64,000 nucleotides of DNA, taken from the NCBI GenBank assembly GCA_049322915.1, contig JBMOPW010000014.1, positions 408,983-472,982 of the forward strand, given 5' to 3'. Below the pieces are notes generated by a model that was not told the DNA's origin, searched no databases, and was given only the letters and a program-made list of their open reading frames with translations. The translations under genes and the position numbers were made by a program. Position 1 is the stretch's first letter, and every line of letters starts with the position of its first letter. Positions 41,738 to 56,600 of this stretch are shown here, piece after piece. The stretch comes from Candidatus Zhuqueibacterota bacterium (GTDB lineage: Bacteria > Zhuqueibacterota > Zhuqueibacteria > Thermofontimicrobiales > Thermofontimicrobiaceae).

Positions 41738-44041
41738 TTAACTGTTGGAATACAGCGCGCGAAGCACCTTATCCGGCGTGATGGGCAGGCTCCTGATCCG
41801 CACGCCGATGGCGTTATAAACCGCGTTGGCTATGGCGCCCGGCGTGGGAATCATCGCCGGTTCGCCGCAGCCTTTGACGCCGGTGCTGCTCAGCAACGAA
41901 TCGCCCTTACTGACAATGATCACTTCAATTTCAGGAATGTCCTTGATGGTCGGGATTTTATAATCGTGCAAATTGTTGGTGAGCAATTTGCCGGTGGCGC
42001 CATCGATGAGGCGCTCTTCCATCAGCGCAAAGCCAATTCCCTGAATAACGCCGCCGTGGAATTGATTTTCCATGGTGGTCCGGTTGAGCACTCGGCCAAT
42101 ATCATGGGCAGCGACCACTTTGACCACGCGAATCCGGCCGGTTTCAGTGTCCACTTCCACATCGGCGAATTGCGCGCCGAACGTATTGGTTGTATATTTT
42201 TCCGGATTTGCCGCGCGCGCGCCAGTGGTGACCAGCACCTGTTCCCGCATTTGCCTGACAACGTCCGAGATTTTGAGTTTTTTCGAGTCATCGGATTTTA
42301 ACGAGATCACGCCGCTGGCGTAGACCAACTGTTCCGCCGGCGCACTCAGAATCGCCGCTGCACCGGAGATGAGTTTGGCTTTCATTTGTTCAGCGGCATC
42401 GCGCACTGCCGGCGAAACGGACGGCGCTGTCATGCTTCCGCCGCTGGAACTGGAATAGGGCGCTGCGCCTGTGTCGCCCAGTATGACGGATATTTTATCC
42501 ATGGGAATTTCCAGCACTTCAGAGGCCACCTGCGCCATGAACGTGTTGGTGCCGGTGCCGAGATCCTGGGTCCCGCAAATGACGCGAACACTGCCGTCCC
42601 GATTGAGCTTCACAGTCGCGTACGAAGGCGGCGCGCCGCCGCCCCACCAGATTTGCGTGGCCATGCCAATGCCCCGTCTCAGATGACCGACGCCCGCGCC
42701 GGCCGGCGTGTTCCGCCTATGCCAGCCGATGGCTGCTGCGCCACGCTCATACGCCTCGCGCAACTTTTTCGAAGTATACGGTGCGTTGGAAACCTGGTCG
42801 ATTTCAGTATAATTTTTCAATCGAAATTGCAATGGATCCATTCCGATTTTTTCAGCCAACTCGTCGATGATGGATTCAGTCGCAAACGTGCCCTGGACAT
42901 GGCCCGGCGCGCGAAACGGTCTGGCTGGCCCGGCATTGGTGTACACGGAGTATTCTTCGGACTTCACATTGGCGCAGGAATACAGCGTGCGAAATGGCCA
43001 ACTGCAACCGGCGCCGCTGGGATAAGCGCCAACCGTCCCATAGGAGTAATGGAACATGGCCGTCAACGCCCCGTCCCGCTTTGCGGCGACTTTCAATTTT
43101 TGAACCGAGTCCGGGCGGTTGCCCACAGCGAGATTCTGTTCCTTCCTGTTCAGGGCGATTCTCACCGGCCGACCGATCTGGCGCGCTAACAGTGCAGCCA
43201 TCACTGTGTATTTCCCGGCAGCGAGCTTGCTGCCAAATCCACCGCCCATGTATTTTTTGATGACGCGCACGCTGCTGCCCGGAATGCCGAGCGATTCAGC
43301 GACGGTATCGCGAACGGTGAAAATACCCTGGGTGGAATCCCACACGGTCAACTGGTCGCCGTCCCAATTGGCCACGCTGTTGTGCACTTCAGTGGGATTA
43401 TGAACTTCCACCTGGGTGGTGAACGTATATTCCACGGTGACGTCCGCTTCGGCAAAACCTTTGGCTAAATCCCCGCGTTCGTAGACATTGGGTTTGCCCT
43501 CCTGAATGTTGTTGTCTTTGTACAGTAGCGGCGCATTGCTTTTCATGGCCTCCCCGGCGTCGATGACAAAGGGCAGGGCCTCGTAACTCACATCGATTCG
43601 TTCGATGGCTTCGTCGGCAATGGCTTCGGTTTCAGCAACCAGGCAGGCGACTTCATCGCCTTCGTAGCGCAGATGCGGGTCGAATAACTGGCTGATCCGA
43701 TAGTACCAGGGTATTTTGGGGCAATTTTCATGGGTTAAAACAGCTAGCACGCCGGGCGTGTTCAAGGCCCGGGTGACATCGATTTTCAGAATTCTGGCAT
43801 GGGGCAGAGGACAGCGCAGCGTTCGCGCGTGAGCCATTCGGGGCAGTTTAATATCCACTGTGTATTGGGCGGTCCCGCTGACTTTATCGTACCCGTCAAT
43901 TCGGGGCATGGGTTGGCCGACGACTTTCAAGTCCGCGTCGGGACCCCATGGCTTCAATTTTTCGGTGGGAACCTCGGCCAGGGTTTCGGCCGGTCCCTCT
44001 TCAAAAAAGTAAGTACTTTTAATTATCTTTCGTTCAGGCAT
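41738..44041 (-). CDS. Xanthine dehydrogenase-family molybdopterin-binding subunit (PaoC-like)
   Basis: RIDGYDKVSG, GGGFGSK, FRAPG, DLGTG, GGS, KGCGE. Confidence 0.93.
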   Translation of the reverse strand: MPERKIIKSTYFFEEGPAETLAEVPTEKLKPWGPDADLKVVGQPMPRIDGYDKVSGTAQYTVDIKLPRMAHARTLRCPLPHARILKIDVTRALNTPGVLAVLTHENCPKIPWYYRISQLFDPHLRYEGDEVACLVAETEAIADEAIERIDVSYEALPFVIDAGEAMKSNAPLLYKDNNIQEGKPNVYERGDLAKGFAEADVTVEYTFTTQVEVHNPTEVHNSVANWDGDQLTVWDSTQGIFTVRDTVAESLGIPGSSVRVIKKYMGGGFGSKLAAGKYTVMAALLARQIGRPVRIALNRKEQNLAVGNRPDSVQKLKVAAKRDGALTAMFHYSYGTVGAYPSGAGCSWPFRTLYSCANVKSEEYSVYTNAGPARPFRAPGHVQGTFATESIIDELAEKIGMDPLQFRLKNYTEIDQVSNAPYTSKKLREAYERGAAAIGWHRRNTPAGAGVGHLRRGIGMATQIWWGGGAPPSYATVKLNRDGSVRVICGTQDLGTGTNTFMAQVASEVLEIPMDKISVILGDTGAAPYSSSSGGSMTAPSVSPAVRDAAEQMKAKLISGAAAILSAPAEQLVYASGVISLKSDDSKKLKISDVVRQMREQVLVTTGARAANPEKYTTNTFGAQFADVEVDTETGRIRVVKVVAAHDIGRVLNRTTMENQFHGGVIQGIGFALMEERLIDGATGKLLTNNLHDYKIPTIKDIPEIEVIIVSKGDSLLSSTGVKGCGEPAMIPTPGAIANAVYNAIGVRIRSLPITPDKVLRALYSNS

Positions 44042-44235
44042 AACACCTCCGGAAAAAGATTTTTCTCAATGACGAAACACGGCCATCGAAGCGGTTTGCA
44101 TAATTCCATTCGGATCATCACGGGGCGCGCGCATTGGATAGACATGAAAAAGTATTGCATTCGCATCGTCAATTTTTTAAGTAATCCCACGCAGCGAAAA
44201 TTCTCAGCGGGACGGATCATTGACCAAAGTATGTC

Positions 44236-44850
44236 CTACTTGAATTTTGCGGCGGCTGCGGCCAAAACCGAATCGACAATCTTGGGGTAGGCAGCACATC
44301 GGCACAAATTCCCGCCCATCCCGTCCTGAACCTGTTCCCGCGACGGAGTGGGATTATTCATAAGGAGCGCGTGAGCCGCCATAATCTGTCCCGGCGTACA
44401 AAAACCGCATTGCAGCCCATCTTTGTCGATAAACGCTTGCTGAATGGGATGCAGCGTTTCGCCGTTCATCAGCCCTTCGATGGTGGTCACCTCTTTTCCT
44501 GCCGCGTCCAGGGCCAACAAATGACAGGAATAGACTGCGCTGCCATTCAACAATACGGTGCAACTGCCGCATTCACCCTGGTTGCAGGCAATTTTGGTTC
44601 CGGTCAATTGCAGCGAATCGCGGAGCACCTCGGCCAGCGTCGTCCGGGGCTCAACCATCAATTTCACGGCGCGGCCATTGACCTTGAAGGCAAGCAATTG
44701 TTTCCCATCGTGAGCGGCCTCGGCGGTCGCCAATTGTTCGGAAATAGCCGGCAGCGAATGCACCAACACCGTGGATCCCACGACCCCGCTGCCGATGCCC
44801 TTCATAAATTTCCGCCGGGAAATGCCATCGGATTTGATTCTGTCTTTCAT
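44236..44850 (-). CDS. 2Fe-2S subunit with Tat signal (PaoA-like)
   Basis: SRRKFMKG signal; CNQGECGSC, QCGFCTPG, CRC. Confidence 0.92.
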   Translation of the reverse strand: MKDRIKSDGISRRKFMKGIGSGVVGSTVLVHSLPAISEQLATAEAAHDGKQLLAFKVNGRAVKLMVEPRTTLAEVLRDSLQLTGTKIACNQGECGSCTVLLNGSAVYSCHLLALDAAGKEVTTIEGLMNGETLHPIQQAFIDKDGLQCGFCTPGQIMAAHALLMNNPTPSREQVQDGMGGNLCRCAAYPKIVDSVLAAAAAKFK

Positions 44851-45062
44851 AACAAAGTCCTTTGTAAGGTGGATTGAATGGTTACAGTGCGGTTTCTGAA
44901 CCGAATGACTCCAGTGGTCGATTGAGTCGATTGAAACAAATAAAACGGACTGTTCAGATTTCAATTAAATAAAATTTGGGATAATGTCAAGTAAAAAATT
45001 GAAAGGTCCAGGGTGACTGACGACAGTCCGGCCGTGACAGCGCTTGCCCTCGGTTGGAGTCA

Positions 45063-45992
45063 TCAGCGACTGTTGGCTCTGTAATAGTCCTCGCAGACAG
45101 TGCACCGGTGGCAGGCTTTATGGCACATCAGCGTTTGCTTGAAGAATTCCTCTCCAATCTCAATAGGCGTTCGCGGCGATGCCGGCCCGGCGCCTATCCG
45201 ATGGGGAGAACGCCTGGAGCGAAAGATATAGGCGTCCAGCACCTCCCTGTAATAGGACGGATTTTGCAGCGTCACCCGTCCGGCCAATTTGAGGGTATCG
45301 AAAAGACCGTTGTAGAGATGAAGATGCTGCGGAAGAATCCAACTGCCGGTCAACCGCAGCCAGGGCTTTTGGCTCAGCATGTCCAGGCACAGCGATTGCG
45401 GGTAGGGGAGTTTTGATCCCATTTCATAGAAATGCTGCGTTCGAAAAACACAGTTGGGCAGGCAGCCCTCATTGACAATGAGTCGTATTCCCCCGGAAAA
45501 GGACTCGCGAAGCAAGGTCAGGGCTGGCAAATTTCGGACGATGCGCGACGAGGCCACCAGTGTATCGAAAATACCATTGATCATAGCCAATTGATTGGGA
45601 GAAAAAATGTCCATCAGCACCGAGGCAGTGAGCCGCAGGCGCGGAATGCTTTCCCTGATATTTTTAGCGAGCGTCACATTGGATAGCGTCACGGATTGGA
45701 TTCGATAGGAATTGCATAGGTTTTTCAGCGTCTCAATGATGGCCGGGGTCATTTCTTCTACCGGACGCGGGAAGACGACGGGATTAATCAGCACCGACAG
45801 CCGGAAAGGAGAGGCTTCCAAAAATTCCTGCAACTGGTGCGTCGGTTGCATCGGTCGACCGGAAGGAACATTTTCCATCAGGATGGGAAAATAGACTTCA
45901 TGAATATAGCGGTCGTAGTGCTCGGCGAGATTTTTCCAGAACGAAAGAGGCTGATCGATGTAAGGGATGACCCAGATTGTTTCGCGTTTCAT
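45063..45992 (-). CDS. U32-peptidase-like (Fe-S) protein
   Basis: LIVNEGCLPNCVFRTQH, WILPQ, LKLAGR, C-terminal CxxxCxxCxxC; start set to ATG 45992 (ATGA overlap). Confidence 0.65.
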   Translation of the reverse strand: MKRETIWVIPYIDQPLSFWKNLAEHYDRYIHEVYFPILMENVPSGRPMQPTHQLQEFLEASPFRLSVLINPVVFPRPVEEMTPAIIETLKNLCNSYRIQSVTLSNVTLAKNIRESIPRLRLTASVLMDIFSPNQLAMINGIFDTLVASSRIVRNLPALTLLRESFSGGIRLIVNEGCLPNCVFRTQHFYEMGSKLPYPQSLCLDMLSQKPWLRLTGSWILPQHLHLYNGLFDTLKLAGRVTLQNPSYYREVLDAYIFRSRRSPHRIGAGPASPRTPIEIGEEFFKQTLMCHKACHRCTVCEDYYRANSR

Positions 45993-46972
45993 GACCATGG
46001 AGATTCCGCAATTGTTATTCTTTGTGACGAAGAAAAACGCATGAGTTTCTGAGCAGTACATCCTCCTGTGCAAGCGCCTGTGCGCTTGTAATCGCATAGA
46101 GCGCACCATTTGAAAATACCAACCGCCTGGAATTTTGAAAGCGTTTTTTGAAAGTGAGCGCGAACTGCGTCGGCTGTGAGGGTTGCCGTCAGCGGCAGAT
46201 TGATGAGACGGCCAAGTGGGTAGCAGGCCACGATGCTCCCATCCGGGAGAATGTCCGGGATCGGTTCGCAATGAGTCCCGGGCTTGGGGTCCAGTCCCAA
46301 CTCGCTCAGATGCTCGCCGTTGAACATGCACGGAACAAAGCCGCAGTCCAGGTTTATTTTTACGGACTCAGAGCGCGCGACTCTGGCGAAGTCAGCGATT
46401 CGCTGGCCAATGAGGCTGTAATGCTTGGGCAGCAAACAAGTGTTTTTATAATCAATGCAGGGATGAGCCAGACCCAGTCGTACCTGTTTTTTCAAATTGA
46501 AATCCCGAATGAGATTCAGAAGAAAATTCAGCCGGGCGCTTTTGTGATAAATATTCAACCCCGGCATGACGTTCCGATTCAAGGCTGATAGCGTTTTCTC
46601 CAATCCGGACTTCGCTTCGGGCAATTCATCGGTCCAGTGAGTGATGTTGAGAATAACGGTAATGATATCCTCGGGCAGGGCGCTGAGATATTCTAGCACG
46701 GCTTCGGGCATGAGTCCATTGGAGAAGAGCCGAATCGGCCGGCCGGTTTGTTGCGCCATTTCCAGAAAATGAATAATCTGCGGATGCAATGTGGGCTCTC
46801 CGCCCAGAATGCGAACCTGTCCAATGTTGGACCGCATCACAAAATCCAGAGCAGATTGAAAAATGTTCAGCGGCATGTGGCCATGATTCCTGGCACCGGT
46901 TTTATATTCTCCCTGGGTGAAACAGTAGCGGCAATGGAGATTGCATTCCGATGTAATTGCAATATTAGCCAT
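45989..46972 (-). CDS. Radical SAM protein with C-terminal SPASM-like Cys cluster
   Basis: CNLHCRYC, GGEPTLHP, DCGFVPC, CEP..DILPDG....C, CALC......CTGGC. Confidence 0.9.
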   Translation of the reverse strand: MANIAITSECNLHCRYCFTQGEYKTGARNHGHMPLNIFQSALDFVMRSNIGQVRILGGEPTLHPQIIHFLEMAQQTGRPIRLFSNGLMPEAVLEYLSALPEDIITVILNITHWTDELPEAKSGLEKTLSALNRNVMPGLNIYHKSARLNFLLNLIRDFNLKKQVRLGLAHPCIDYKNTCLLPKHYSLIGQRIADFARVARSESVKINLDCGFVPCMFNGEHLSELGLDPKPGTHCEPIPDILPDGSIVACYPLGRLINLPLTATLTADAVRAHFQKTLSKFQAVGIFKWCALCDYKRTGACTGGCTAQKLMRFSSSQRITIAESPWS

Positions 46973-47237
46973 GTTGTTGCGTCGGAATAAGGATATCGTT
47001 TTTCACCAGAACATCGATGGTGTCGTGGATTATTCTACGAGCGTGAGATTCAGTCACGAGCGCGATCTTCGCCATCATGCGAACCAGGGCAGCTTCCGGC
47101 ACCTGCTTCAATATCAAATCGAAGACGGCGGCCATGGGATAATCCAGGGCCAGTTGACATTCGTTCACCCTTTCGATGAACTGAATGTGCCTGAGATCGA
47201 CACAATAGAAATAATTGGGATTCAGCCGATAGGTCAT
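46965..47237 (-). CDS. PqqD/RRE-like small protein
   Basis: 90 aa, three beta strands then three helices ending IHDTIDVLVKNDIL; lies between radical SAM genes. Confidence 0.6.
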   Translation of the reverse strand: MTYRLNPNYFYCVDLRHIQFIERVNECQLALDYPMAAVFDLILKQVPEAALVRMMAKIALVTESHARRIIHDTIDVLVKNDILIPTQQHG

Positions 47238-48610
47238 TTTTCTTCCTTAAAATGAAAAAGGGTGTCTGATGCGTGCAGCGACAAGGCTTGCAAGCTGGGC
47301 GGATCGGCTAACAGTTCATCGACGCGACCTCTCAGCCCCAGATTTTCCAATAGGCAGCAGACGGTGATGATTCGGGTATGAGTGCAAAAGTCGATATATT
47401 TCGCTGATGAGCCGGGATAGGTGCAATTGACATGACAATTGCCAGCGCAGCTAAATCGGCAGAAACAATTTGCACAACGCGGCTTATTGTAAACCAGATT
47501 TCGGAGGTGTTTCATTTTTTCGAAATCGATTTCCACGTGACCCTGGGGTGACACATGGCCCACGCTCAGGTCGAGATTTTTACTTGCCCAGTCGCTTGCA
47601 TGCAAATAGCAACTGGCTACCGTTCCATCCGGGTGAACGATGAGCACGTCCCGGCCAACAGGGCAGGATGTGGTCTGTACCGTGTCCAATGAAACAGGCG
47701 CATACACCGGTTCGATCATGTGATCCCGTAGAATTCGCCAGCTTCGAATGCAGGCTCCGGCAAACTCGTACGGATCCGGCGGGAATAAGCCCGCAGCGGC
47801 GGATCGGGAGTTCGGTGTGAGCGTTTCGAAATTGACTTTGTCCGGCTGAAATTCCGTGCAGAACCACTGCGCCATGGCCTCCATCTCGTTCACAGAGTCC
47901 GACGTTATGCAACATCGTATGGCGAGGTCGACACTGCTGTCGGATAAATACCTGATGGTCTCAGCCACTTGGTCGTAGCTGCCCTGATGGGAGTTCATGG
48001 GGCGCATCCTGTCGTGATATTTCTGAAAACCATCGAACGAGACCACCACCCGGTCGAAATAATCTCTGACGAACCGGCGCTGCCTTTCTGAGAAGCAGCC
48101 ATTGGTTAGCACTTCAAAGTGGGGGATGAGCCCAATTTTTGACGCCACGAACCGTGTATGGTGTACAGCAATGTCGATGATTTCAGGCTCTGCAAACGGT
48201 TCGCCGCCGAAAAACTGAATGGATAACACTCTTCTGTTGCTATTCCAGGTTAGCTCTGCGTAATAATCGATTGCCGCGATCATTCTGTCCGGGTCGATGG
48301 TTTGCTCTCTACCGTAATCCTCCCCAAAATCACAGTAAATGCAGGACATATTGCAGCGCCGGCTGGGGATGATACCCAGGAATTGAGGATCCAGCCCACC
48401 GGTCCGATCTGGATTACGAGTCGCCGGCGTCCGTAGCTGTTCAATCAACGAAGTCAATTCGCCATGAGCAGGTGAGTCCTTGCCGTTCTGCAATCCTCGT
48501 TTCAAGAGGTCAACGGCGCTTTCATTGAGCAAAGCAGTGATGCCGTGCAGTGGCGCAAACAGCAGGAATGAATCCAGCGCCGGCACGACAAAAATCGAAT
48601 TGCCACGCAT
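47234..48610 (-). CDS. Radical SAM/SPASM maturase
   Basis: CNMSCIYC, FFGGEP, SFDG, CPVG, CANCFCRFSCAGNC; likely start ATG 48610 (ORF track 48661). Confidence 0.92.
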   Translation of the reverse strand: MRGNSIFVVPALDSFLLFAPLHGITALLNESAVDLLKRGLQNGKDSPAHGELTSLIEQLRTPATRNPDRTGGLDPQFLGIIPSRRCNMSCIYCDFGEDYGREQTIDPDRMIAAIDYYAELTWNSNRRVLSIQFFGGEPFAEPEIIDIAVHHTRFVASKIGLIPHFEVLTNGCFSERQRRFVRDYFDRVVVSFDGFQKYHDRMRPMNSHQGSYDQVAETIRYLSDSSVDLAIRCCITSDSVNEMEAMAQWFCTEFQPDKVNFETLTPNSRSAAAGLFPPDPYEFAGACIRSWRILRDHMIEPVYAPVSLDTVQTTSCPVGRDVLIVHPDGTVASCYLHASDWASKNLDLSVGHVSPQGHVEIDFEKMKHLRNLVYNKPRCANCFCRFSCAGNCHVNCTYPGSSAKYIDFCTHTRIITVCCLLENLGLRGRVDELLADPPSLQALSLHASDTLFHFKEEK

Positions 48611-48611
48611 G

Positions 48612-49961
48612 TCAACGGATGATTTTTTCACCATGCCACACGCTGCCTGATTTTTCGACATAGTACAATAGCAATTCCCTTGTGAGTTCCCGATTCAATT
48701 GACATCTGGGACTATATCCATTGCGCCCGGAATCGCCATCATGAAACGCCTTGGGCGGACAATCTCCGGCGCAGTGATAATAACAGAAACATCCTTTGGC
48801 CTTGCATTGGGCCTTGCGCGCTTCAATTTTATCCGCTAACTTTTTCTGTTTCGCTTCGTTGATGTGCAGCGCGCCGTTCTCATCCAGCCTGCCGTAGAAA
48901 AACAGGTCGCTGAGAGCATGCTCCCTGTCATAGACCTCGTAACATGCGGTGAGCTCGCTGTCATGATTCACAATGAGCGCAACGTCCCGAGCCAGACAGA
49001 ATTGATCGGTGACAATCCAGGGTCGTGCGCCGGAATAATACAGATGGCGCTCATGAGAATTGGCAATCTCCAGAGCCTTGGTGAAGACGCTGGCAAAGGC
49101 CCGATAGTTTTTCAAATAGTTATTTTTCAAGTGAGCGCGGCCGTGACTGAATACCGGCTCCACTTGAAAGACATTGCAGCGGGACTCTCGGCACAAGAAA
49201 TCGATACTCGCCGGAAGGGATTCGATGGAATCGTCCATGACGCTCAGGCGAATGCCGTAAGGAATATTCCGCTCATCGATTGCGTTCATCGTCTCAAAAA
49301 CGCGGTCGAAGCTGGGCTTTCCGGCAGCAGCCGGTCGCTGCCGATTTTGGATTTCCGGCAGACCGTCGCAGGACAGTGAAACTTCGGAGATGCCCAAATC
49401 CAGAATTTGCTCTGCTTCGGTCTTCTTCAAATAGCCGTTGGTGGTGAGTGAAATTTTGCAGGGCAGCGCTTTTCCCCCGGCATAGCGAATCAGTTCGAAC
49501 AACTGCTTTTTAACAACCGTGGGCTCGCCGCCGCCGTGAATGCTCAGCGTAAAGCTATCTTTCCTCTGCTCCGTGGCATTTCGGCACGCAATGTCAATGG
49601 CTTTTTTCCCCGTCTCCACTGGCATCACTTTGCCTGTGCGATTCCCTGACGAGGCGTAACAATAAACGCACTGCAAATTGCAGGCAGTCGTCAGCAGCAG
49701 CACGCAGGTGGTTGGCCTTTCAGCCAGCGTTTTGTGGACTCCACGGAGCGTTCGTCTGTTGGGTGAAAAATAACCGATCTGTTCAAGGATAGTGATTGCC
49801 TCTGGTTGGACTCCCCGACGCTCATGAGTTCCGTGCACGTCAGTGAGAACTTCTTTCATGGCTTGATTGGCAATGAACGCTAAGGGCTTGAACGGAAGAT
49901 AGACAAGATACTTATCCTCGACCGGGATGAAAAAGATCGGATTGTCGTTTCTATCGACCAA
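48612..49961 (-). CDS. Radical SAM/SPASM maturase
   Basis: CNLQCVYC, HGGGEP, TTNG, SCDG, C...CFCYYHCAGDCP...C; likely TTG start at 49961 with GGAG RBS just after the WD40 stop. Confidence 0.9.
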   Translation of the reverse strand: MVDRNDNPIFFIPVEDKYLVYLPFKPLAFIANQAMKEVLTDVHGTHERRGVQPEAITILEQIGYFSPNRRTLRGVHKTLAERPTTCVLLLTTACNLQCVYCYASSGNRTGKVMPVETGKKAIDIACRNATEQRKDSFTLSIHGGGEPTVVKKQLFELIRYAGGKALPCKISLTTNGYLKKTEAEQILDLGISEVSLSCDGLPEIQNRQRPAAAGKPSFDRVFETMNAIDERNIPYGIRLSVMDDSIESLPASIDFLCRESRCNVFQVEPVFSHGRAHLKNNYLKNYRAFASVFTKALEIANSHERHLYYSGARPWIVTDQFCLARDVALIVNHDSELTACYEVYDREHALSDLFFYGRLDENGALHINEAKQKKLADKIEARKAQCKAKGCFCYYHCAGDCPPKAFHDGDSGRNGYSPRCQLNRELTRELLLYYVEKSGSVWHGEKIIR

Positions 49962-49974
49962 TGGGCTATCTCCA

Positions 49975-51207
49975 TTAATTTGGATACCAATACCCGCAAC
50001 TGGAGCAACTTGATGTGCTGACCGTATCGCATGTGCAGACCGTGTTGCAGCTACAGATGGTGTCGCACGTGCAGGCAAAACCACCAGGATAAGTCTCATC
50101 GTAAACTTCTTCCGTCAGGGCAGGGTCATGCAGTGACTTGATGAACTTGCCACTTAAATCCCACAGATAAATGTGGCGATCATCTCCGGCAGATGCGAAC
50201 ATGGAATTATCTGGACTAAAAACGACGCTAGTCACCCACCCCGAATGAGCTTGCAAAGTGTTCAGCAGGGAACAAGCGGGAAAGCTTCTGATCTGAAAAG
50301 ACGAATCACCGCCGCTGATGACCATCGCGTTGCTGTATTTATTGATGTCAAAAGTTTGGATGAAAGGGGAGTTCGTATGAAATGATTTGTACAGAATGCC
50401 TTCAGGCAACAGCCAGACATCGATGAGGTCACCGATAAAACCGGATGAGACCAGGAACATGCCATCCGGACTGAAAGCAAGAAGCGCCGCTGAATAGGTG
50501 AGATTAATTGTTTTTTTGAGATTGCCGTTTGGCAATCCCCACAATTTGATGGTCTGGTCACTACTTCCTGATGCTATTGTCGCACCATCCGGGCTGATGG
50601 CGACTGCGTTGATGTAAACCAAATGTCCCACGAGCGAGTTAATCTCTGTATTATCGCGCAGGCTCCATAAATTCACAGTTAGCATATGTCCGGCCGTCGC
50701 CAGCATGGAACTGTCAGGACTGATAGCAAAGTCATTGCCGATGAACCTGCTCCTCATGACGCCGTCGGGCAAGTTCCAAATAGTGATGATACTATCTGTC
50801 GCCCTCGAAGCAAGCATGGTACCATCCCGACTGTAAGCCACTTTTTTTACAGCATAATAGGGTGATGCGTCAATTGTCCGCACCAGACTACCATCGGATA
50901 CGCGCCACAGTTTGACTTTTCTGTCGTCGCTACCAGACGCCAGCATTGTCGCGTCGGGGCTGAAAGCGACTGACGAAATGGATGAGCTATGAGCAAACTG
51001 AATGACTTTTTTCCGCTGCGCTTCCGTTTCCTTCGAGGATGTTGGATCTTCACAACCGCTGAGAGTTGAGCCCAAAGCAATACCTGATGTGATTGCCGAG
51101 CCAAGCCCGAGAAAATTTCGTCGCGACAGAGATTTGTCGTCCTTGGTTTTTTGGATGGCGTAAATCTCCGGTTCTTCAGGCGATTTCAATCGTTGTTTTT
51201 TCATCAT
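49975..51207 (-). CDS. Tat lipoprotein with 7 WD40 repeats and Cys-rich tail ending SCGYWYPN (putative modification substrate)
   Basis: SRRNFLG plus lipobox LSGC; seven WD40 blades; tail CTCDTICSCNTVCTCDTVSTSSCSSCGYWYPN; AGGAG RBS. Confidence 0.85.
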   Translation of the reverse strand: MMKKQRLKSPEEPEIYAIQKTKDDKSLSRRNFLGLGSAITSGIALGSTLSGCEDPTSSKETEAQRKKVIQFAHSSSISSVAFSPDATMLASGSDDRKVKLWRVSDGSLVRTIDASPYYAVKKVAYSRDGTMLASRATDSIITIWNLPDGVMRSRFIGNDFAISPDSSMLATAGHMLTVNLWSLRDNTEINSLVGHLVYINAVAISPDGATIASGSSDQTIKLWGLPNGNLKKTINLTYSAALLAFSPDGMFLVSSGFIGDLIDVWLLPEGILYKSFHTNSPFIQTFDINKYSNAMVISGGDSSFQIRSFPACSLLNTLQAHSGWVTSVVFSPDNSMFASAGDDRHIYLWDLSGKFIKSLHDPALTEEVYDETYPGGFACTCDTICSCNTVCTCDTVSTSSCSSCGYWYPN

Positions 51208-51353
51208 TTCATCTCCTGTAATAGGGTGAAGTGTTGAATCCCCATTGTGGAAATTAAATAGAATTTTAAAGATTCACGATTCACTCGATTTCGGCTATCG
51301 GTGATCATTGGCCATTAAAGCAGAATCGTGCGCGGTGAATGTTTCTTGTTGAA

Positions 51354-53018
51354 TCAATTTGGATACCAGTAACCGCAACTGGCGCAACTGCTGCAACTGG
51401 AACAACTGCTGCAGCTTGAACAGCTACTGCATGAAGTGCCGATGGTGACTGTATCGCACACACAGGTAATTTCACCGGTCAAAGAAGTGCCTGTGGAAAT
51501 GGTGATGGTATCGCACGTGCACACAAGATTGCAGGTGCACACAGAATTGCTGAAAACTGGCTCTCGCTGTTTGACGGTGCGGCAATCGATTTTTGTCACC
51601 AGCGCCGGATCGTAGAGGCACCAGTATGGATTGCCGGTTGGCATTGTCCAGAGCTTGAGCGTGAGGTCCCAGGCGCCGGACGCCAGCATTGCGCCGTCAG
51701 GAGTGAAGGCAATCGTCATGACTGTGTAAGAATGTCCGGAAAGGCTTTTTATTAATTTTCCATCCGGCAGGCTCCACAGCATAATTACGGTATCCAGCCC
51801 GGCGGACGCCAGCATTTTCCCATCCGGGCTGACGGCGATCGTGATAACGGAAAAGCTGTGTCCCTGCAATGTTTGCAGCAAAGTGAATTTTAATTGATCG
51901 TCAGATGCTGAAACAGGGTTTTTCTTGTCGCACCCGGAAATCACCGAGGCAACGGCGGCGGTCGCGCCGATGAGCAACGCCGTATCGCTCGCTTTTCGTC
52001 CTGAGCCATGGCTAACCAATTCATTTTGAAGTGGAATTGGGGATGGTGGCTCACCGCTGATGCGGTCGGAATGATTGCGCTGGCTTCCATGAAGCGCTAT
52101 AAATGCTGTCAGCGCAGCGACCTTATATTCATCCGATTGTTTTTCAATGAGCAATTCGCCTGGTGGGTTTTTCGTGACGAAATTCTCTCCGGTCCCAGAA
52201 ATGCTCCATACTTTGATTGTTGTATCCCCGCTGCCGGAGAACAGGCGTGTGCCGTCCGGGCTGAACTTGACCGATGAGACGTATGCTGCATGGCCATCCA
52301 GAGTTTTCAGCAATTTCCCATCTGGGATTCTCCAGATTTTGATGGTTTCATCGACACTGCCAGAAGCCAGCAGCGTGCCATCCGGGCTGAAACAGACTGT
52401 ACTGACGGTTTCAGTATGGCTTTTGAATGATTCCAGCAATTTGCCATCAGGCAGGCTCCACAACTTAATCGTTTTATCCACGCTGCCGGAAGCCAGTAGC
52501 GTGCCATCCGGGCTAACTGCCAGACAATAGATATCGCCAACATGGCCGCTTAGCGTTTTCAGTTGCACCCCATCGGATACGCGCCATAATTTAATGAACG
52601 TGCCTATCCCCCCTGAGACCAGGATCGTCCCATCGGGGCTGAACGCCAGACAGTAAATTTCCGATGAGCTATCTTCGATCGTCCGGCTCAAATCTCCATT
52701 CGGCAGATTCCAAAATTTGATTTTTTTATCGTTGCTTCCGGATGCCAATAGTTTTCCGTCATGGCTGATGACGACAGAGTAAATTCCATTTGTATGGGCA
52801 GTTACATTATTACATAGTTCACTGGAGAGTTTACCACCTTCTCCCACTGTTTGGGCCATCGCACGTTTTGCCCCATTTGCGCCAAGCATCACACCAGCGC
52901 CAATCCCCAGACCTAATCCCACAAAATTTCGCCGGCTGATACCATAATCGCTTTTGCTTTTTTGAAGTGCAAATATCTGTGGCGCTTCTCTCTTGCGGTT
53001 TCGATTTTTTTTATTCAT
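51354..53018 (-). CDS. Tat-exported WD40 protein (7 blades, ~100-aa insert) with Cys-rich tail ending SCGYWYPN
   Basis: SRRNFVG plus AMA cleavage site; seven GH..WD-type repeats; tail CTCNLVCTCDT...CVCDT...(SSC)n-ASCGYWYPN; AGGAG RBS. Confidence 0.85.
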   Translation of the reverse strand: MNKKNRNRKREAPQIFALQKSKSDYGISRRNFVGLGLGIGAGVMLGANGAKRAMAQTVGEGGKLSSELCNNVTAHTNGIYSVVISHDGKLLASGSNDKKIKFWNLPNGDLSRTIEDSSSEIYCLAFSPDGTILVSGGIGTFIKLWRVSDGVQLKTLSGHVGDIYCLAVSPDGTLLASGSVDKTIKLWSLPDGKLLESFKSHTETVSTVCFSPDGTLLASGSVDETIKIWRIPDGKLLKTLDGHAAYVSSVKFSPDGTRLFSGSGDTTIKVWSISGTGENFVTKNPPGELLIEKQSDEYKVAALTAFIALHGSQRNHSDRISGEPPSPIPLQNELVSHGSGRKASDTALLIGATAAVASVISGCDKKNPVSASDDQLKFTLLQTLQGHSFSVITIAVSPDGKMLASAGLDTVIMLWSLPDGKLIKSLSGHSYTVMTIAFTPDGAMLASGAWDLTLKLWTMPTGNPYWCLYDPALVTKIDCRTVKQREPVFSNSVCTCNLVCTCDTITISTGTSLTGEITCVCDTVTIGTSCSSCSSCSSCSSCSSCASCGYWYPN

Positions 53019-53038: not shown

Positions 53039-53455
53039 TTATGGTTCGTAATGCACATCATTCGCAGGAATACATATTCCCTGTTGCACGAACTGCAACG
53101 CAATTTCCCGGACACGCTGAAACCCTTCATCAATGGGAAGTTTGTACTCCGATGAAAAATTCATACTAATCAAGTGAATACCGAGTCCCTGTTTGATATG
53201 GGATAGAAAAAAGACTTCTGGTGATCCTTTACAATACTGACCAAGCGGTTCGTCGTTTTTATTGACAATAAAAATATCACCGGCGTTCTCTTTAATAGCA
53301 ACATTGTCCCGCACACGGAATTTGAGTTGTCGGAATTTGTTCTCATCCAGCTTCCATAAATCCGTCAGTTTAAAATGACGATGCCCGTCGCATTCTTCTT
53401 TTATCATATAAATATGGGACAGTAACTCTTTGAAAAAATAACGTCGTTGAGTCAT
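53039..53455 (-). CDS. Hypothetical protein, possible RRE/PqqD-like C-terminal half
   Basis: 138 aa with AAGGA RBS; C-terminal ISMNFSSEYKL...VREIALQFVQQGIC resembles PqqD winged-helix helices. Confidence 0.5.
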   Translation of the reverse strand: MTQRRYFFKELLSHIYMIKEECDGHRHFKLTDLWKLDENKFRQLKFRVRDNVAIKENAGDIFIVNKNDEPLGQYCKGSPEVFFLSHIKQGLGIHLISMNFSSEYKLPIDEGFQRVREIALQFVQQGICIPANDVHYEP

Positions 53456-53512: not shown

Positions 53513-54370
53513 TTATTCAAGCCGGGTGATGAATTGGAAATTGGACAACCTGCCCCATTTCTCTTTCATGCACGTATCCGAAATCGATTGCGGCCGAGGC
53601 AGGAGACGGTCATTCATGTCATAGTAATAGCCTTGAATATTATTGATCCGCGCGCAACCGGCGAGTGTGCCGTCCGGATTCACTGTAACGCCATTGAAAA
53701 ATGCGCCGCACGCGTAATTGAATCCGCAGCAGTTCGGCGCATGCCCCGGATATATGCCTAATTCCAGGCTGAGCCTTTCGTAGTTGTATTTAAACTCTTT
53801 CCACTCGAAATAGTCGAGCATCTGGTCCGGATTCCCCACGTAGGGAGTGACATTGTTGAACAACGAATTGGTATTTTTAGCGACGGCCAGCACTTCACCG
53901 TAACAATCTTTGTTCAAAAGCGATACCGTGTAACTGATCCAATGGTTCAGGCCGGCGTCGTTCAGCATCGTCAATGCTTCGACGGCTTTGGTATAGACGC
54001 CCTGACCGCGAATGATGTCATTGATTTTTTCACTCCCGTCCAGCGAAATCTGAACGCACAGCTTTTCTTTGTACGGCAACAGAAGCGTCACATATTTATA
54101 AATCAATGTACCATTGCTCAATATGGAAACCCGATCGAATTGAGAAAAGCAATACTCTAAAAATTGAAAAAACTCCGGGTGCAGTAATGGTTCGCCGCCA
54201 CTTAAATAAATGACAGACATGTTCTGTCTGTTGCGCAGAACGTGTTTTATGGTTTCAAGTATATCTTTGAACAGGAGGAAATCCATTGACTGGGCTCTAT
54301 CATGCTTTCGCGCGTAGCACGAAATGCATTTCAGGTTGCACGTTTCCAGTAATCGTAAATGAAACCACAT
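53513..54370 (-). CDS. Radical SAM protein with short (Twitch-like) Cys-rich C-terminus
   Basis: CNLKCISC, SGGEPLLHP, QISLDG, CC....CGA...VNPDG...GC. Confidence 0.9.
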   Translation of the reverse strand: MWFHLRLLETCNLKCISCYARKHDRAQSMDFLLFKDILETIKHVLRNRQNMSVIYLSGGEPLLHPEFFQFLEYCFSQFDRVSILSNGTLIYKYVTLLLPYKEKLCVQISLDGSEKINDIIRGQGVYTKAVEALTMLNDAGLNHWISYTVSLLNKDCYGEVLAVAKNTNSLFNNVTPYVGNPDQMLDYFEWKEFKYNYERLSLELGIYPGHAPNCCGFNYACGAFFNGVTVNPDGTLAGCARINNIQGYYYDMNDRLLPRPQSISDTCMKEKWGRLSNFQFITRLE

Positions 54371-54379
54371 GGTTCGCCT

Positions 54380-55534
54380 TTACTTGGGGGTGACAGCGAC
54401 AATGGCGCCTTTTTTGAAAATCGAAACAGGGGCAAGCGTTTTCAATGTCAAACCGTGAAAGCCATTGATTGAAATCTGCCGCTTGCTCCACTTGTCCGGA
54501 TGAATGAATTCTATCCTGCCTGAGTCATCGTACACAAGGCACGTTTCCAGATATTCGTCATCAATAATTTTTTCAAACGGTTGTCTAAGCAAGGCGATTA
54601 TGTTCTGTCGTCGTTTTTTCACCTGCATCCGTTTATTGATTGTCGAGCAGAAATTGAAGTTCAGCCCGCTGCCAGTGTCGGCTAACGCAGTGAGTATTTC
54701 TGTGACGACACCGGCGCTATCCATTGAAATTTCCGTGATATGTCCATCTTCAAACATGATTTTCCTGAAATGCTCAGCGTTCAAGCATGCGGAATGCGAT
54801 TGGCTCTCTTTCATCAACTCGTGCACATTGAGAAATTTTACGCCGGCGTCTTCGTAGCCCGGAATGGCCATTAAAAGTGCGGCTTTATCTCTCAGCAACA
54901 ATGGGATTTCGACGGTAATGTTCCTGATTTTCTTTGCTGCATATTCCATAATTCGCATGACATGAATGTCATCGTATCCGGTAGCGGCTGTGTTGAACCT
55001 GATTTCGTCAAGCGCCAGATCGGAAAATGAATCGACCTGGCGCTCCGTGAGTTGAACGCCATTGGTATAGAGCCAAAAATAATTATCTGGAAATTGACTT
55101 TTGAAAAATGTCAGCAGATCGGCGGTCCTTCGGAACTTGCATAACGGCTCGCCACCAGAGAAGCTGATCCCCCTGATATGAACGCGCTGGTAATTAGTGG
55201 CGATCTGTCGTTTATCCCGACCCAGCGCTGAAAGCGGTACACCCGGCCTGTTCTTTAACGTGCTGATGCAAAATTCGCAGTCGAGGTTGCACGTCGGTGT
55301 AACGAACAGACAATCCCAATGACCGCTCTTGCACAGCATGCACCCGGGCGACAGCTCCCCTCGGCAAATAGTCTGGCTATCACGATCCACCCGAATTCCA
55401 GGGAACTGCCGGGCGATGCTGTCCTGATATTCGCACCAGATGGCTTGCAGTTCAGTGATATTGGTTTGTTGTGTCGGAGCGCTCGCTAACAGACTCGCTA
55501 CAAACGCCGGAATTGTACACTTCGTGTTTTTCAT
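54380..55534 (-). CDS. Radical SAM protein (non-SPASM, PGCxxC N-terminal type)
   Basis: LSPGCMLC..G...LFVT..CNLDCEFC, SGGEP, LYTNG, LDEIRF, VEIP; start uncertain, overlaps upstream gene. Confidence 0.85.
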   Translation of the reverse strand: MKNTKCTIPAFVASLLASAPTQQTNITELQAIWCEYQDSIARQFPGIRVDRDSQTICRGELSPGCMLCKSGHWDCLFVTPTCNLDCEFCISTLKNRPGVPLSALGRDKRQIATNYQRVHIRGISFSGGEPLCKFRRTADLLTFFKSQFPDNYFWLYTNGVQLTERQVDSFSDLALDEIRFNTAATGYDDIHVMRIMEYAAKKIRNITVEIPLLLRDKAALLMAIPGYEDAGVKFLNVHELMKESQSHSACLNAEHFRKIMFEDGHITEISMDSAGVVTEILTALADTGSGLNFNFCSTINKRMQVKKRRQNIIALLRQPFEKIIDDEYLETCLVYDDSGRIEFIHPDKWSKRQISINGFHGLTLKTLAPVSIFKKGAIVAVTPK

Positions 55535-56600
55535 ATTCAAATAACAACCGGTTGATCCGGCACCGCAAACTCTGTGTGACCGGGTAAGCGGCTTCGTGGC
55601 TCAATCTGCACAGATCAGGGCAGCCTCTCACGCATGAGTCCTGCACTTCGCACCTTACGCATTCCAGGTAAAGTTTGTGGGCGGAGCATTCTAAATCCCG
55701 GACCTTGTTAGTATTGATTAAAAATCGATTTGCTTCTACATCGTAATGCCCAATGGCAAACAAGCTTTCAATGGCTTCATCGTCTTTGAATAAACAGGCA
55801 GAGGCAATCCCGCGCCGTCCAATGAATAGGACATTTTTAAAAAAATTGCAATACGGTCCATGCTGTTGATTGCTGCGATACCCGGAGTAATTGATCATTC
55901 CACCGGCGCGGGACACTATTTTTTTTGCTCTGAGAAAATTGAACACAAAGATATCCGGTTCAGGATAGAGTGCATTCCCGACACTCAAGCGGTACACGGG
56001 TTCCACCTGAAATTCGCGCAAGCCCAGGTCATCGATGAAATGTGTCATGATTGGCGCCAGCAGATGTGCATTGTGCCTGGTTACAGTGATCCTGATGACA
56101 GGTATTTTCCGATTTTCGCTGAGAATGCGTAACGCAGCCATCACGCTCGGGTAAGTACCGGTTCCCGAAGTATGCCGTCTCTGAAAGTCGTGCGCATTTC
56201 GGTCACCGTCGAGAGAGAGACAGATACGATCGAAATGGTTGGCGATCCAGGAATACTTATAATCCTCCATGCACCCATTGCTAGTAATGAATGAAAATAA
56301 TGACAATCCTCTTTGCCGTAGCATGGCTGCAATGAATTCATGTATTTTTTTCAACAGATCAAACTGAAGGAGCGGTTCGCCGCTGCCCTGGAATCCCAGA
56401 TAGAAAGGTTTCCGTTTGTTCAGGCAGTTGTCGACAATCAACTCTGCCGCACATTGGATGCAGTTCAGAAAATCGTTCTCGTGCAGGTAGTGGTCGCAGG
56501 AGTGGTGATTCTGGGGCCGGGAATAACAGTAAAGGCAATCCAGGTTGCACTCCGAGCCGAGGCTAATTGTAAGACAGAGCGGTGAAAAAAGCATGTCCAT
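55452..56600 (-). CDS. Radical SAM/SPASM maturase
   Basis: CNLDCLYC, GSGEP, TSNG, SLDG, CVRC.....CVRGCP...C. Confidence 0.9.
   Translation of the reverse strand: MDMLFSPLCLTISLGSECNLDCLYCYSRPQNHHSCDHYLHENDFLNCIQCAAELIVDNCLNKRKPFYLGFQGSGEPLLQFDLLKKIHEFIAAMLRQRGLSLFSFITSNGCMEDYKYSWIANHFDRICLSLDGDRNAHDFQRRHTSGTGTYPSVMAALRILSENRKIPVIRITVTRHNAHLLAPIMTHFIDDLGLREFQVEPVYRLSVGNALYPEPDIFVFNFLRAKKIVSRAGGMINYSGYRSNQQHGPYCNFFKNVLFIGRRGIASACLFKDDEAIESLFAIGHYDVEANRFLINTNKVRDLECSAHKLYLECVRCEVQDSCVRGCPDLCRLSHEAAYPVTQSLRCRINRLLFEYEKHEVYNSGVCSESVSERSDTTNQYH

Follow-up and report, generated by a model that had tools for sequence, protein, structure and literature searches.

A register-locked motif ahead of the twin arginines in two WD40 precursors: a possible docking site for radical-SAM tail maturation

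How might a folded protein substrate remain unexported until a slow modification in the cytoplasm is complete? In this article, I will discuss this question as it is raised by a gene cluster in a 64,000-nucleotide stretch of contig JBMOPW010000014.1 from a Candidatus Zhuqueibacterota bacterium (the window, in which all coordinates below are positions). The cluster lies wholly on the minus strand and encodes two WD40 proteins of 554 and 410 aa, each with a predicted twin-arginine translocation (Tat) signal at its N-terminus and a Cys-rich tail at its C-terminus, together with radical-SAM enzymes and small proteins predicted to fold as recognition elements (RREs) for peptides that are made on ribosomes and modified after translation (RiPPs). 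Both signals carry a short motif in the n-region at a fixed distance from the twin arginines (RR), and the reading that I favor, with a probability of roughly 45% and thus somewhat short of even odds, is that E-x-P-[EQ]-[IV]-[FY]-[AS]-[ILV]-(10 residues)-R-R-x-F is a family-wide, leader-like docking element for the machinery that modifies the tail. The parts of the two precursors on which the argument depends are these:

51354-53018, minus strand: 554-aa WD40 precursor (Pfam WD40, E 1.7e-74)
52959-52988, minus strand: n-region motif E11-A-P-Q-I-F-A-L-Q-K20 of the 554-aa protein (gap-free alignment and family table)
52929-52934, minus strand: twin arginines of the 554-aa protein (R29-R30), 16 residues past P13
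52854-53018, minus strand: predicted Tat signal peptide of the 554-aa protein, residues 1-55 (read by eye)
51357-51551, minus strand: Cys-rich tail of the 554-aa protein, CTCNLVCTCDT ... CSSC repeats ... GYWYPN (translation and tail conservation)
49975-51207, minus strand: 410-aa WD40 precursor (Pfam)
51148-51177, minus strand: n-region motif E11-E-P-E-I-Y-A-I-Q-K20 of the 410-aa protein (alignment and family table)
51118-51123, minus strand: twin arginines R29-R30 of the 410-aa protein (translation and NCBIfam TAT_signal_seq)
51055-51207, minus strand: predicted Tat lipoprotein signal peptide of the 410-aa protein, residues 1-51, with lipobox L49-S50-G51-C52 (read by eye)
49978-50073, minus strand: Cys-rich tail of the 410-aa protein, CTCDTICSCNTVCTCDT...CSSCGYWYPN (translation)

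The n-region motif in the two WD40 precursors

The N-termini of the two proteins align without a gap across residues 1-60 and have in common E11, P13, I15, F/Y16, A17, L/I18, Q19 and K20, followed by S28-R29-R30-N31-F32-x-G-L-G, such that P13 precedes the first arginine by 16 residues in both. The paralogues are identical at 24 of their first 46 residues (counted on the alignment), compared with 39% in the 275-column first (propeller) segment, and an AGGAG-type ribosome site stands immediately 5' of both starts. Within the motif, the codons for P (cca/ccg), I (ata/att) and A (gca/gcc) differ synonymously between the two genes, which argues that conservation acts on the protein; an RNA-level or translational signal is unlikely for the same reason.

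The motif is also rare in its own genome. A six-frame regular-expression scan of the 6.25-Mb genome for P.I[FY]A[LIVM]QK found only the two WD40 proteins, and when the looser P.[ILVM][FYW].[ILVM] was sought up to 30 residues before RR among the 34 Tat-like N-termini of the strict-pattern set from the same genome, the two that carried it were again the WD40 pair. Their n-regions are 27-28 residues long, against a median of 7.5 for the 34, and no Pfam or NCBIfam model matches either the n-region motif or the Cys-rich tail. The first-pass annotation of this stretch had described a gap-free alignment with a motif in fixed register before RR, and had called such a motif unusual for Tat n-regions; the alignment bears out the former, and the remaining 32 Tat-like N-termini, all without the motif, agree with the latter. 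Its list of motif residues needs correction, in that Q19 and K20 are not family-wide and A17 is A, S or another small residue rather than invariant, as the relatives described below make clear.

Relatives, tails and cargo domains

Two anchors free of the motif itself were used to find relatives: the C-terminal 60 residues of the 410-aa protein (by word search) and the 138-aa neighbor gene. The tail anchor brought in six other proteins (P0002-P0007), among them P0004, which is WD40, distant and GC-rich, and P0007, which is not WD40 (Pfam PF16158), and 6/6 carry the motif with its P 16 residues before RR; the 138-aa anchor brought in one precursor in genome G011, truncated where the contig ends, and three in a 44-kb metagenome contig, with the motif in 4/4. 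A search of genome contigs with the 138-aa protein gave one locus, a duplicate of G011, and residues 1-60 of the 410-aa protein, used alone in a word-based search, matched only themselves. One 36-residue piece (L012), in which EKPEIFAV is present and which diverges before RR at a contig end, is excluded from all counts.

The loci and early searches together supplied 30 precursors with 29 unique N-termini, collected with a pattern that fixed positions 0 (the P), +2, +3, +5 and RR and left the remaining columns free. The spacing from P to RR is 16 in all 30, without insertion or deletion, while the rest of the n-region varies. Among the 29 unique N-termini, E stands at -2 in 28 and F at RR+2 in 29 (as does RR itself, 29/29), position +4 is A or S in 25, +6 is variable and +7 is K in 18. 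Furthermore, a 40-position N-terminal profile run with HMMER against 1.84 billion representative proteins returned 53 matches at E<=0.001, of which 51 carry the motif and two (P0043 and P0059) are spurious. In the combined set of 64 proteins the motif is found in 62, with a spacing of 16 in 61 and of 17 in one (P0064), whereas two proteins of the set, P0031 and P0039, deviate at one position each (T at +5, RK for RR); since the representatives are clustered at 50% identity, include many fragments and are related to one another, these counts express breadth and not statistics. In 167 genomes of the phylum, matches to the profile that include its positions 1-8 (E<=1.3e-9) occur only in G000, G011, G096 and G118; G119 has a weaker match (positions 9-49, E 1.5e-5) that proves on inspection to be a family member, and the other matches listed in the scan, none of which begins before profile position 15, cover only its Tat part. 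The first-pass annotation had named absence of the motif from homologous precursors as a refutation; in the relatives compared the motif is kept, distant ones and non-WD40 cargo included, and every complete relative recovered carries it.

Two of the relatives have disturbed reading frames. In L037 (G118:C879, 1380-1420, minus strand) the precursor frame follows directly on the stop of the RRE gene, with no start codon before the motif; beyond about eight consecutive A, and in a different frame, stands an ATG-AAT-AAA... start, a homopolymer frameshift that may be real or an assembly error. In L034 (G096:C27, 8944-10211) a frameshift divides the first precursor between two open reading frames (ORFs), one of 195 aa for the N-terminal part and one of 277 aa for the C-terminal part, the 195-aa piece being representative P0016.

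Other explanations of the motif were considered and set aside. It is not a general Tat feature of the genome or phylum, given that the other Tat-like N-termini of the genome lack it and that the phylum matches listed outside the family cover only the Tat part, and it is not an N-terminal strand closing the propeller, for it lies upstream of a predicted cleavable signal and occurs on non-WD40 cargo as well.

At the other end of the protein, both window precursors finish with C-x-C-x-x-x units and then GYWYPN, which does not recur in the 6.25-Mb genome. Among the 62 motif bearers, 39 have a Cys-rich stretch that leads into a terminal [YS][WY][YHFR]P[NDS] (most commonly HYWHPN, HYWYPN and GYWYPN). 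Twenty of the 23 without that ending are at most 260 residues long, shorter than any complete member, and are presumably fragments; of the others, P0018 and P0038 look truncated, and P0049 has an alternative Cys-rich end, ...CTCVPIK, as does G119. An earlier word-indexed search had found the Cys-rich tail in 14/14 matches. Between the two ends lie 300-500 residues of unrelated cargo, and the N-terminal profile held no information on the tail. Cargo was tallied for 29 motif-and-tail proteins, using a stricter tail pattern that misses the GYWYPN-type endings: 14 are WD40-like, 6 PF16158-like (Ig-like) and 9 unassigned by a crude BLAST, one of the latter with weak propeller matches. Motif and tail thus travel together, each co-occurring exclusively with the other across different cargo folds, and the domain between them has been exchanged.

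The subfamily of G119, P0049 and P0044, in which the tail ends ...CTCDKICTCVPIK instead of ...YWYPN, has a longer conserved n-region, E-x-P-x-[IL]-[FY]-K-I-x-D-[IL]-x-x-D-W-x-M-[GN]-R-R-G-F-L, and the W at +12 is frequent in the largest subfamily too (...G-x-x-W-Q-I-S-R-R-D-F-L-K).

As to the export signals, for which the Tat consensus at the n/h boundary is [ST]-R-R-x-F-L-K, the 410-aa protein scores 17.7 bits with NCBIfam TIGR01409 (TAT_signal_seq), over the cut-off of 16.7, and 13.8 with Pfam PF10518 (TAT_signal), under that of 22.7, and the 554-aa protein stays under both cut-offs (14.9 and 15.5 bits), while 5/7 scanned relatives exceed the Pfam cut-off at 23.9-26.6 bits. TatC is encoded in the genome (PF00902, 246 bits, over cut-off, at G000:C10). 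Both signals have a moderately hydrophobic h-region ahead of their predicted site: in the 554-aa protein FVGLGLGIGAGVMLGA... is followed by a predicted signal peptidase I site, AMA|Q (A53-M54-A55|Q56), and in the 410-aa protein FLGLGSAITSGIALGSTLSG|C ends in the predicted lipobox L49-S50-G51-C52, both read by eye and both as the first-pass annotation had described them. Orthologues of the 554-aa protein retain [VIL]-x-A|[QH] at the predicted cleavage site, and 19/62 family members have a lipobox-like Cys past the h-region.

The 554-aa protein is laid out as Tat signal, about five blades, an internal hydrophobic VISGC segment, more blades and the Cys-rich tail. The internal segment (residues ~343-362) is a hydrophobic stretch with a lipobox-like end, ...VISGC-D-K-K-N-P, which is kept in the long orthologues (P0002, P0003, P0005, P0006, P0009, the 549-aa protein of L013 and the 568-aa protein of G096) and aligns with the end of the lipoprotein signal of the 410-aa paralogue. 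The long form looks like a soluble propeller fused to a lipoprotein-type precursor that has lost its RR and n-region.

Neighboring proteins and possible docking partners

In gene order, the cluster runs from three radical-SAM genes through the 138-aa gene, the 554-aa and 410-aa precursors, two SPASM enzymes and the 90-aa gene to a further radical-SAM gene and the 311-aa gene. The members that have not yet been located are as follows:

55452-56600, minus strand: 382-aa radical-SAM protein (NCBIfam/Pfam; NCBIfam scores far under family cut-offs)
54380-55540, minus strand: 386-aa radical-SAM protein (NCBIfam/Pfam; NCBIfam scores far under family cut-offs)
53513-54370, minus strand: 285-aa radical-SAM protein (NCBIfam/Pfam; NCBIfam scores far under family cut-offs)
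53039-53455, minus strand: 138-aa predicted discrete RRE, PqqD/lasso-B1-like (AlphaFold2 model, Foldseek, five aligned orthologues)
48612-50099, minus strand: 495-aa radical-SAM/SPASM enzyme with an N-terminal extension of ~130 residues, RRE-like by position (NCBIfam/Pfam)
47234-48661, minus strand: 475-aa radical-SAM/SPASM enzyme with an N-terminal extension (NCBIfam/Pfam)
46965-47237, minus strand: 90-aa predicted discrete RRE protein (AlphaFold2, Foldseek)
45989-46972, minus strand: 327-aa radical-SAM enzyme (NCBIfam/Pfam)
45063-45998, minus strand: 311-aa distant U32-peptidase-like protein, final gene of the cluster (Pfam E 0.093, Atlas structures)

The 138-aa and 90-aa proteins have no Pfam or NCBIfam match by sequence, and by their structure models both fold as RREs. 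The AlphaFold2 model of the 138-aa protein (mean predicted local distance difference test score, pLDDT, 81.9) has three strands at residues 45-74 and then three helices at 79-124, and its best Foldseek matches are lasso B1 proteins solved with bound leaders (first 6jx3_B, E 1.5e-4, template-modeling (TM) score 0.82 on the target, root-mean-square deviation 2.3, and also TbiB1), followed by the PbtF RRE, PqqD and the SuiB RRE. The 90-aa model (pLDDT 88.0) matches TbiB1 (5v1v_A, E 5.7e-5, TM 0.83/0.84) and 6jx3_B (TM 0.84/0.89). In five loci (the window, G011, L013, G096 and G118) the 138-aa gene lies immediately upstream of the first precursor, and in two of them, L013 and G096, it runs into the start of that precursor; orthologues of the 90-aa gene occur in G011 and G096. 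Ahead of its predicted RRE fold the 138-aa protein has an N-terminal extension of ~40 residues starting M-[TS]-x-R-R-x-F-F-[KR], a start invariant in five orthologues (window, L002, L013, L034 and L037) that resembles a twin-arginine motif without an h-region; the model makes residues 1-22 a helix of low confidence (pLDDT 52-66).

All six radical-SAM proteins stay under every curated NCBIfam maturase cut-off, the best scores being 45-105 bits against cut-offs of 340-600 for PapB, SCIFF, CefB, CXXX-repeat and other families; for the SPASM enzymes the best, yet weak, family match is PapB (90-105 bits against 340). The best solved relative of the 495-aa enzyme is CteB (5wgg_A, E 1.3e-13), which aligns from its residue 101 onto query residue 134, and because the alignment begins only there, the extension corresponds by position to the CteB RRE. 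The start of the 495-aa ORF is uncertain on account of its overlap with the 3' end of the 410-aa gene.

Which of these domains could serve as partner throughout the family is narrowed by genome G119 (95% complete), where a 467-aa WD40 precursor (L039, 2019-3422, minus strand) has E-E-P-K-I-Y-K-I 16 residues before RR and a single 452-aa SPASM enzyme lies directly upstream of it, with no further ORF before an unrelated gene. This enzyme is 37% identical to the 495-aa enzyme of the window from residue 55 on, N-terminal extension included, and neither the 138-aa profile nor the 90-aa protein has a match anywhere in the G119 genome. As G119 keeps the motif without them, those two cannot be universal partners. 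The 495-aa type, found in G000, G011, G118 and G119, is the sole maturase type in common with the minimal G119 locus; in G096, where a contig end truncates the cluster, nothing of this type came up at E<=1e-30. Should the partner be an RRE, the N-terminal extension of the 495-aa type is therefore the more likely universal one.

The 311-aa protein at the end of the cluster matches Pfam Peptidase_U32 at E 0.093, under the cut-off, and Atlas structure rows carrying PF01136 at TM 0.87-0.88, the top row being a radical-SAM fusion protein of 622 aa; the role of the 311-aa protein could be that of a protease or of a different tailoring enzyme. A HemN-like radical-SAM gene (479 aa at L013 9853-11292, in the metagenome contig, and 450 aa at L034 13823-15175, in G096) lies between precursor genes, with none between the precursors of the window. 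Directly downstream of the cluster is a molybdopterin oxidoreductase pair of the xanthine-dehydrogenase type (41738-44964, minus strand), whose [2Fe-2S] subunit (44236-44964) bears a Tat signal of the usual short kind, GISRRKFMKG; it lacks the n-region motif and so offers a contrast within the window.

A proposed mechanism, its rivals and known systems

Taken as a docking element, the motif would act in the cytoplasm, where an RRE domain of the radical-SAM machinery would bind it as a short strand-like segment; the 495-aa-type SPASM enzyme offers the best candidate in its N-terminal extension, and in the larger clusters the discrete 138-aa and 90-aa proteins may bind it as well. The precursor would stay tethered by the motif while the enzymes modify its Cys-rich C-terminal tail. 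The ends of the chain in a closed WD40 propeller are usually adjacent, and if this is so here an N-terminal handle need not be spatially far from the tail. The constant distance to RR suggests that motif and arginines are read together, and with the motif in this register the binding of an RRE would also mask the Tat signal and delay export. After release, Tat would export the folded and modified protein, and the signal, with the motif in it, would be removed by signal peptidase I in the 554-aa type and by the lipoprotein pathway in the 410-aa type. The first-pass annotation had signal peptidase doubling as the leader protease; with a U32-like protein ending the cluster, it need not be the only one. 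A bolder version, in which docking strand and twin arginines form one unit, perhaps a hairpin, clamped by an RRE so that TatBC sees the cargo only on release, is a long shot; here the Tat-like start of the 138-aa protein could join the hand-over by occupying the RR site of TatC or by pairing with the RR of the precursor. Were it true, the RRE clamp would be a new Tat quality control built from RiPP parts, for protein-sized substrates with several cargo folds.

The same register would equally fit an export-control element, read by a Tat proofreading chaperone encoded elsewhere or by TatBC and timing or permitting export, since such a partner could take motif and RR as a unit. The motif also persists in G119 without discrete RREs, and chaperones that bind Tat signals are an established class, as the available portion of PMC3316669 describes. 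However, this leaves the perfect coupling to a radical-SAM-associated tail less directly explained, and TorD and DmsD recognize the H and C regions of the Tat signal and not the N region (PMC3316669, same portion), so that a proofreading chaperone docking at the motif, which the first-pass annotation had offered next to an RRE, would differ from the known ones. I consider export control alone rather unlikely. Most RiPP recognition sequences sit near the core, and one could instead suppose that the maturases recognize the pre-core L-x-D-P-A and that the n-region motif serves solubility, avoidance of Sec and the signal recognition particle, protection from proteolysis or some role after cleavage. 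In the WD40-type precursors this segment, L359-x-D361-P362 in 410-aa numbering, is indeed conserved (D361 in 18/18, L359 and P362 in 94%), but it is missing in the PF16158-type members, which have ...PTPTSYVVC... there, whereas the n-region motif is common to all cargo types, and N-terminal truncations of the SPASM substrate CrpA reduced its processing (PMC13692751, available portion). Pre-core recognition therefore strikes me as quite improbable as the whole explanation. That the motif is a functionless leftover of shared ancestry is very improbable: the members share homology in signal and tail at the least, and their common descent is certain, yet the flanking n-region has fully diverged (P0004 and G119 against the window, for example) while E(-2), P0, the hydrophobic residues at +2, +3 and +5 and the 16-residue spacing are kept, synonymous changes have accumulated within the motif, and cargo domains have been swapped with the motif retained.

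Several points weigh against docking as well. The Tat assignment of the window proteins combines borderline model scores with a family-level consensus, and neither protein reaches the Pfam cut-off. G119 counts against the version in which the discrete RRE proteins are the partners, and the RRE nature of the radical-SAM N-terminal extensions is judged from position and sequence pattern. The pre-core segment is the more conventional site for a recognition sequence in the WD40 types. Retrieval by the N-terminal profile favors motif bearers, and the samples free of that bias are small, at 6 + 4 proteins. Finally, binding itself is something that I infer, and so are masking, the succession of steps, the sites of cleavage and the chemistry of the tail. 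Measured as a RiPP leader, the motif is conserved and N-terminal, its removal would follow from the predicted signal-peptidase sites, and a spacer of 300-500 residues is atypical. Of the leader-docking proposal in the first-pass annotation, the conserved motif and the RRE neighbors have held up, the 90-aa and 138-aa proteins, which it named as candidates together with the radical-SAM N-terminal extensions, having RRE folds in their models; the inclusion of Q19 and K20 has not.

If the motif is a docking site, the signature E-x-P-E-[IV]-[FY]-[AS]-[ILV], placed 16 residues ahead of RR and paired with a Cys-rich ...YW[YH]PN end, would mark a large exported family whose tails are probably cross-linked by radical-SAM enzymes. 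In the full-text literature covered, which leaves out subscription-only journals, no Tat signal with a register-locked n-region motif tied to radical-SAM maturation was found, and this would be the first case found of a RiPP-type recognition sequence within a Tat signal.

How, then, does the proposed arrangement compare with known systems? Like the Tat proofreading chaperones, among which NapD, HyaE and HybE stand beside TorD and DmsD, it would hold back export by cytoplasmic binding of the Tat signal until the cargo is finished, although TorD and DmsD, as far as the available source describes them, have other folds and serve cofactor enzymes. The motif here is short, and beta-branched and aromatic residues abound in it, as they do in the docked leader strands of RRE-leader RiPP systems; those systems (PqqD-PqqA; lasso B1 in 6jx3, 5v1u and 5v1v) likewise encode small winged-helix RREs beside the substrate. 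Unlike them, the putative recognition sequence here lies inside a Tat signal in register with RR, a folded domain of 300-500 residues precedes the core, and a cluster may hold up to four RRE-type domains. In bufferins and oxazolins (Sec) and in DAG-RiPPs (lipoprotein pathway), a C-terminal Cys motif is similarly modified in the cytoplasm before general export and removal of the signal by a signal peptidase, but those use MNIO enzymes (oxidative enzymes that depend on multinuclear non-heme iron) and Sec or Lsp signals where the present cluster has radical SAM/SPASM enzymes and a Tat-type signal; neither the bufferin/oxazolin nor the DAG-RiPP paper contains the words Tat or twin-arginine, and their available portions report no conserved n-region motif. 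By family and by structure, the SPASM enzymes match the ranthipeptide/SCIFF SPASM maturases PapB and CteB best, if weakly, and differ from them in scores far under the curated cut-offs and in having proteins as substrates, not peptides of ~50 residues.

A precedent for an N-terminal recognition sequence on a protein-sized SPASM substrate is CrpA/CrpC of Methanococcus voltae, in which, according to the available portion of PMC13692751, a SPASM radical-SAM enzyme with an RRE installs thioether crosslinks in a Cys-rich protein whose predicted RRE recognition sequence sits at the very N-terminus and is set off by an intervening domain, and whose N-terminal truncation lowers processing. That system is archaeal, has a single enzyme and, in the same portion, no export signal mentioned; a docking site of the kind proposed here would link RiPP leader recognition with Tat proofreading.

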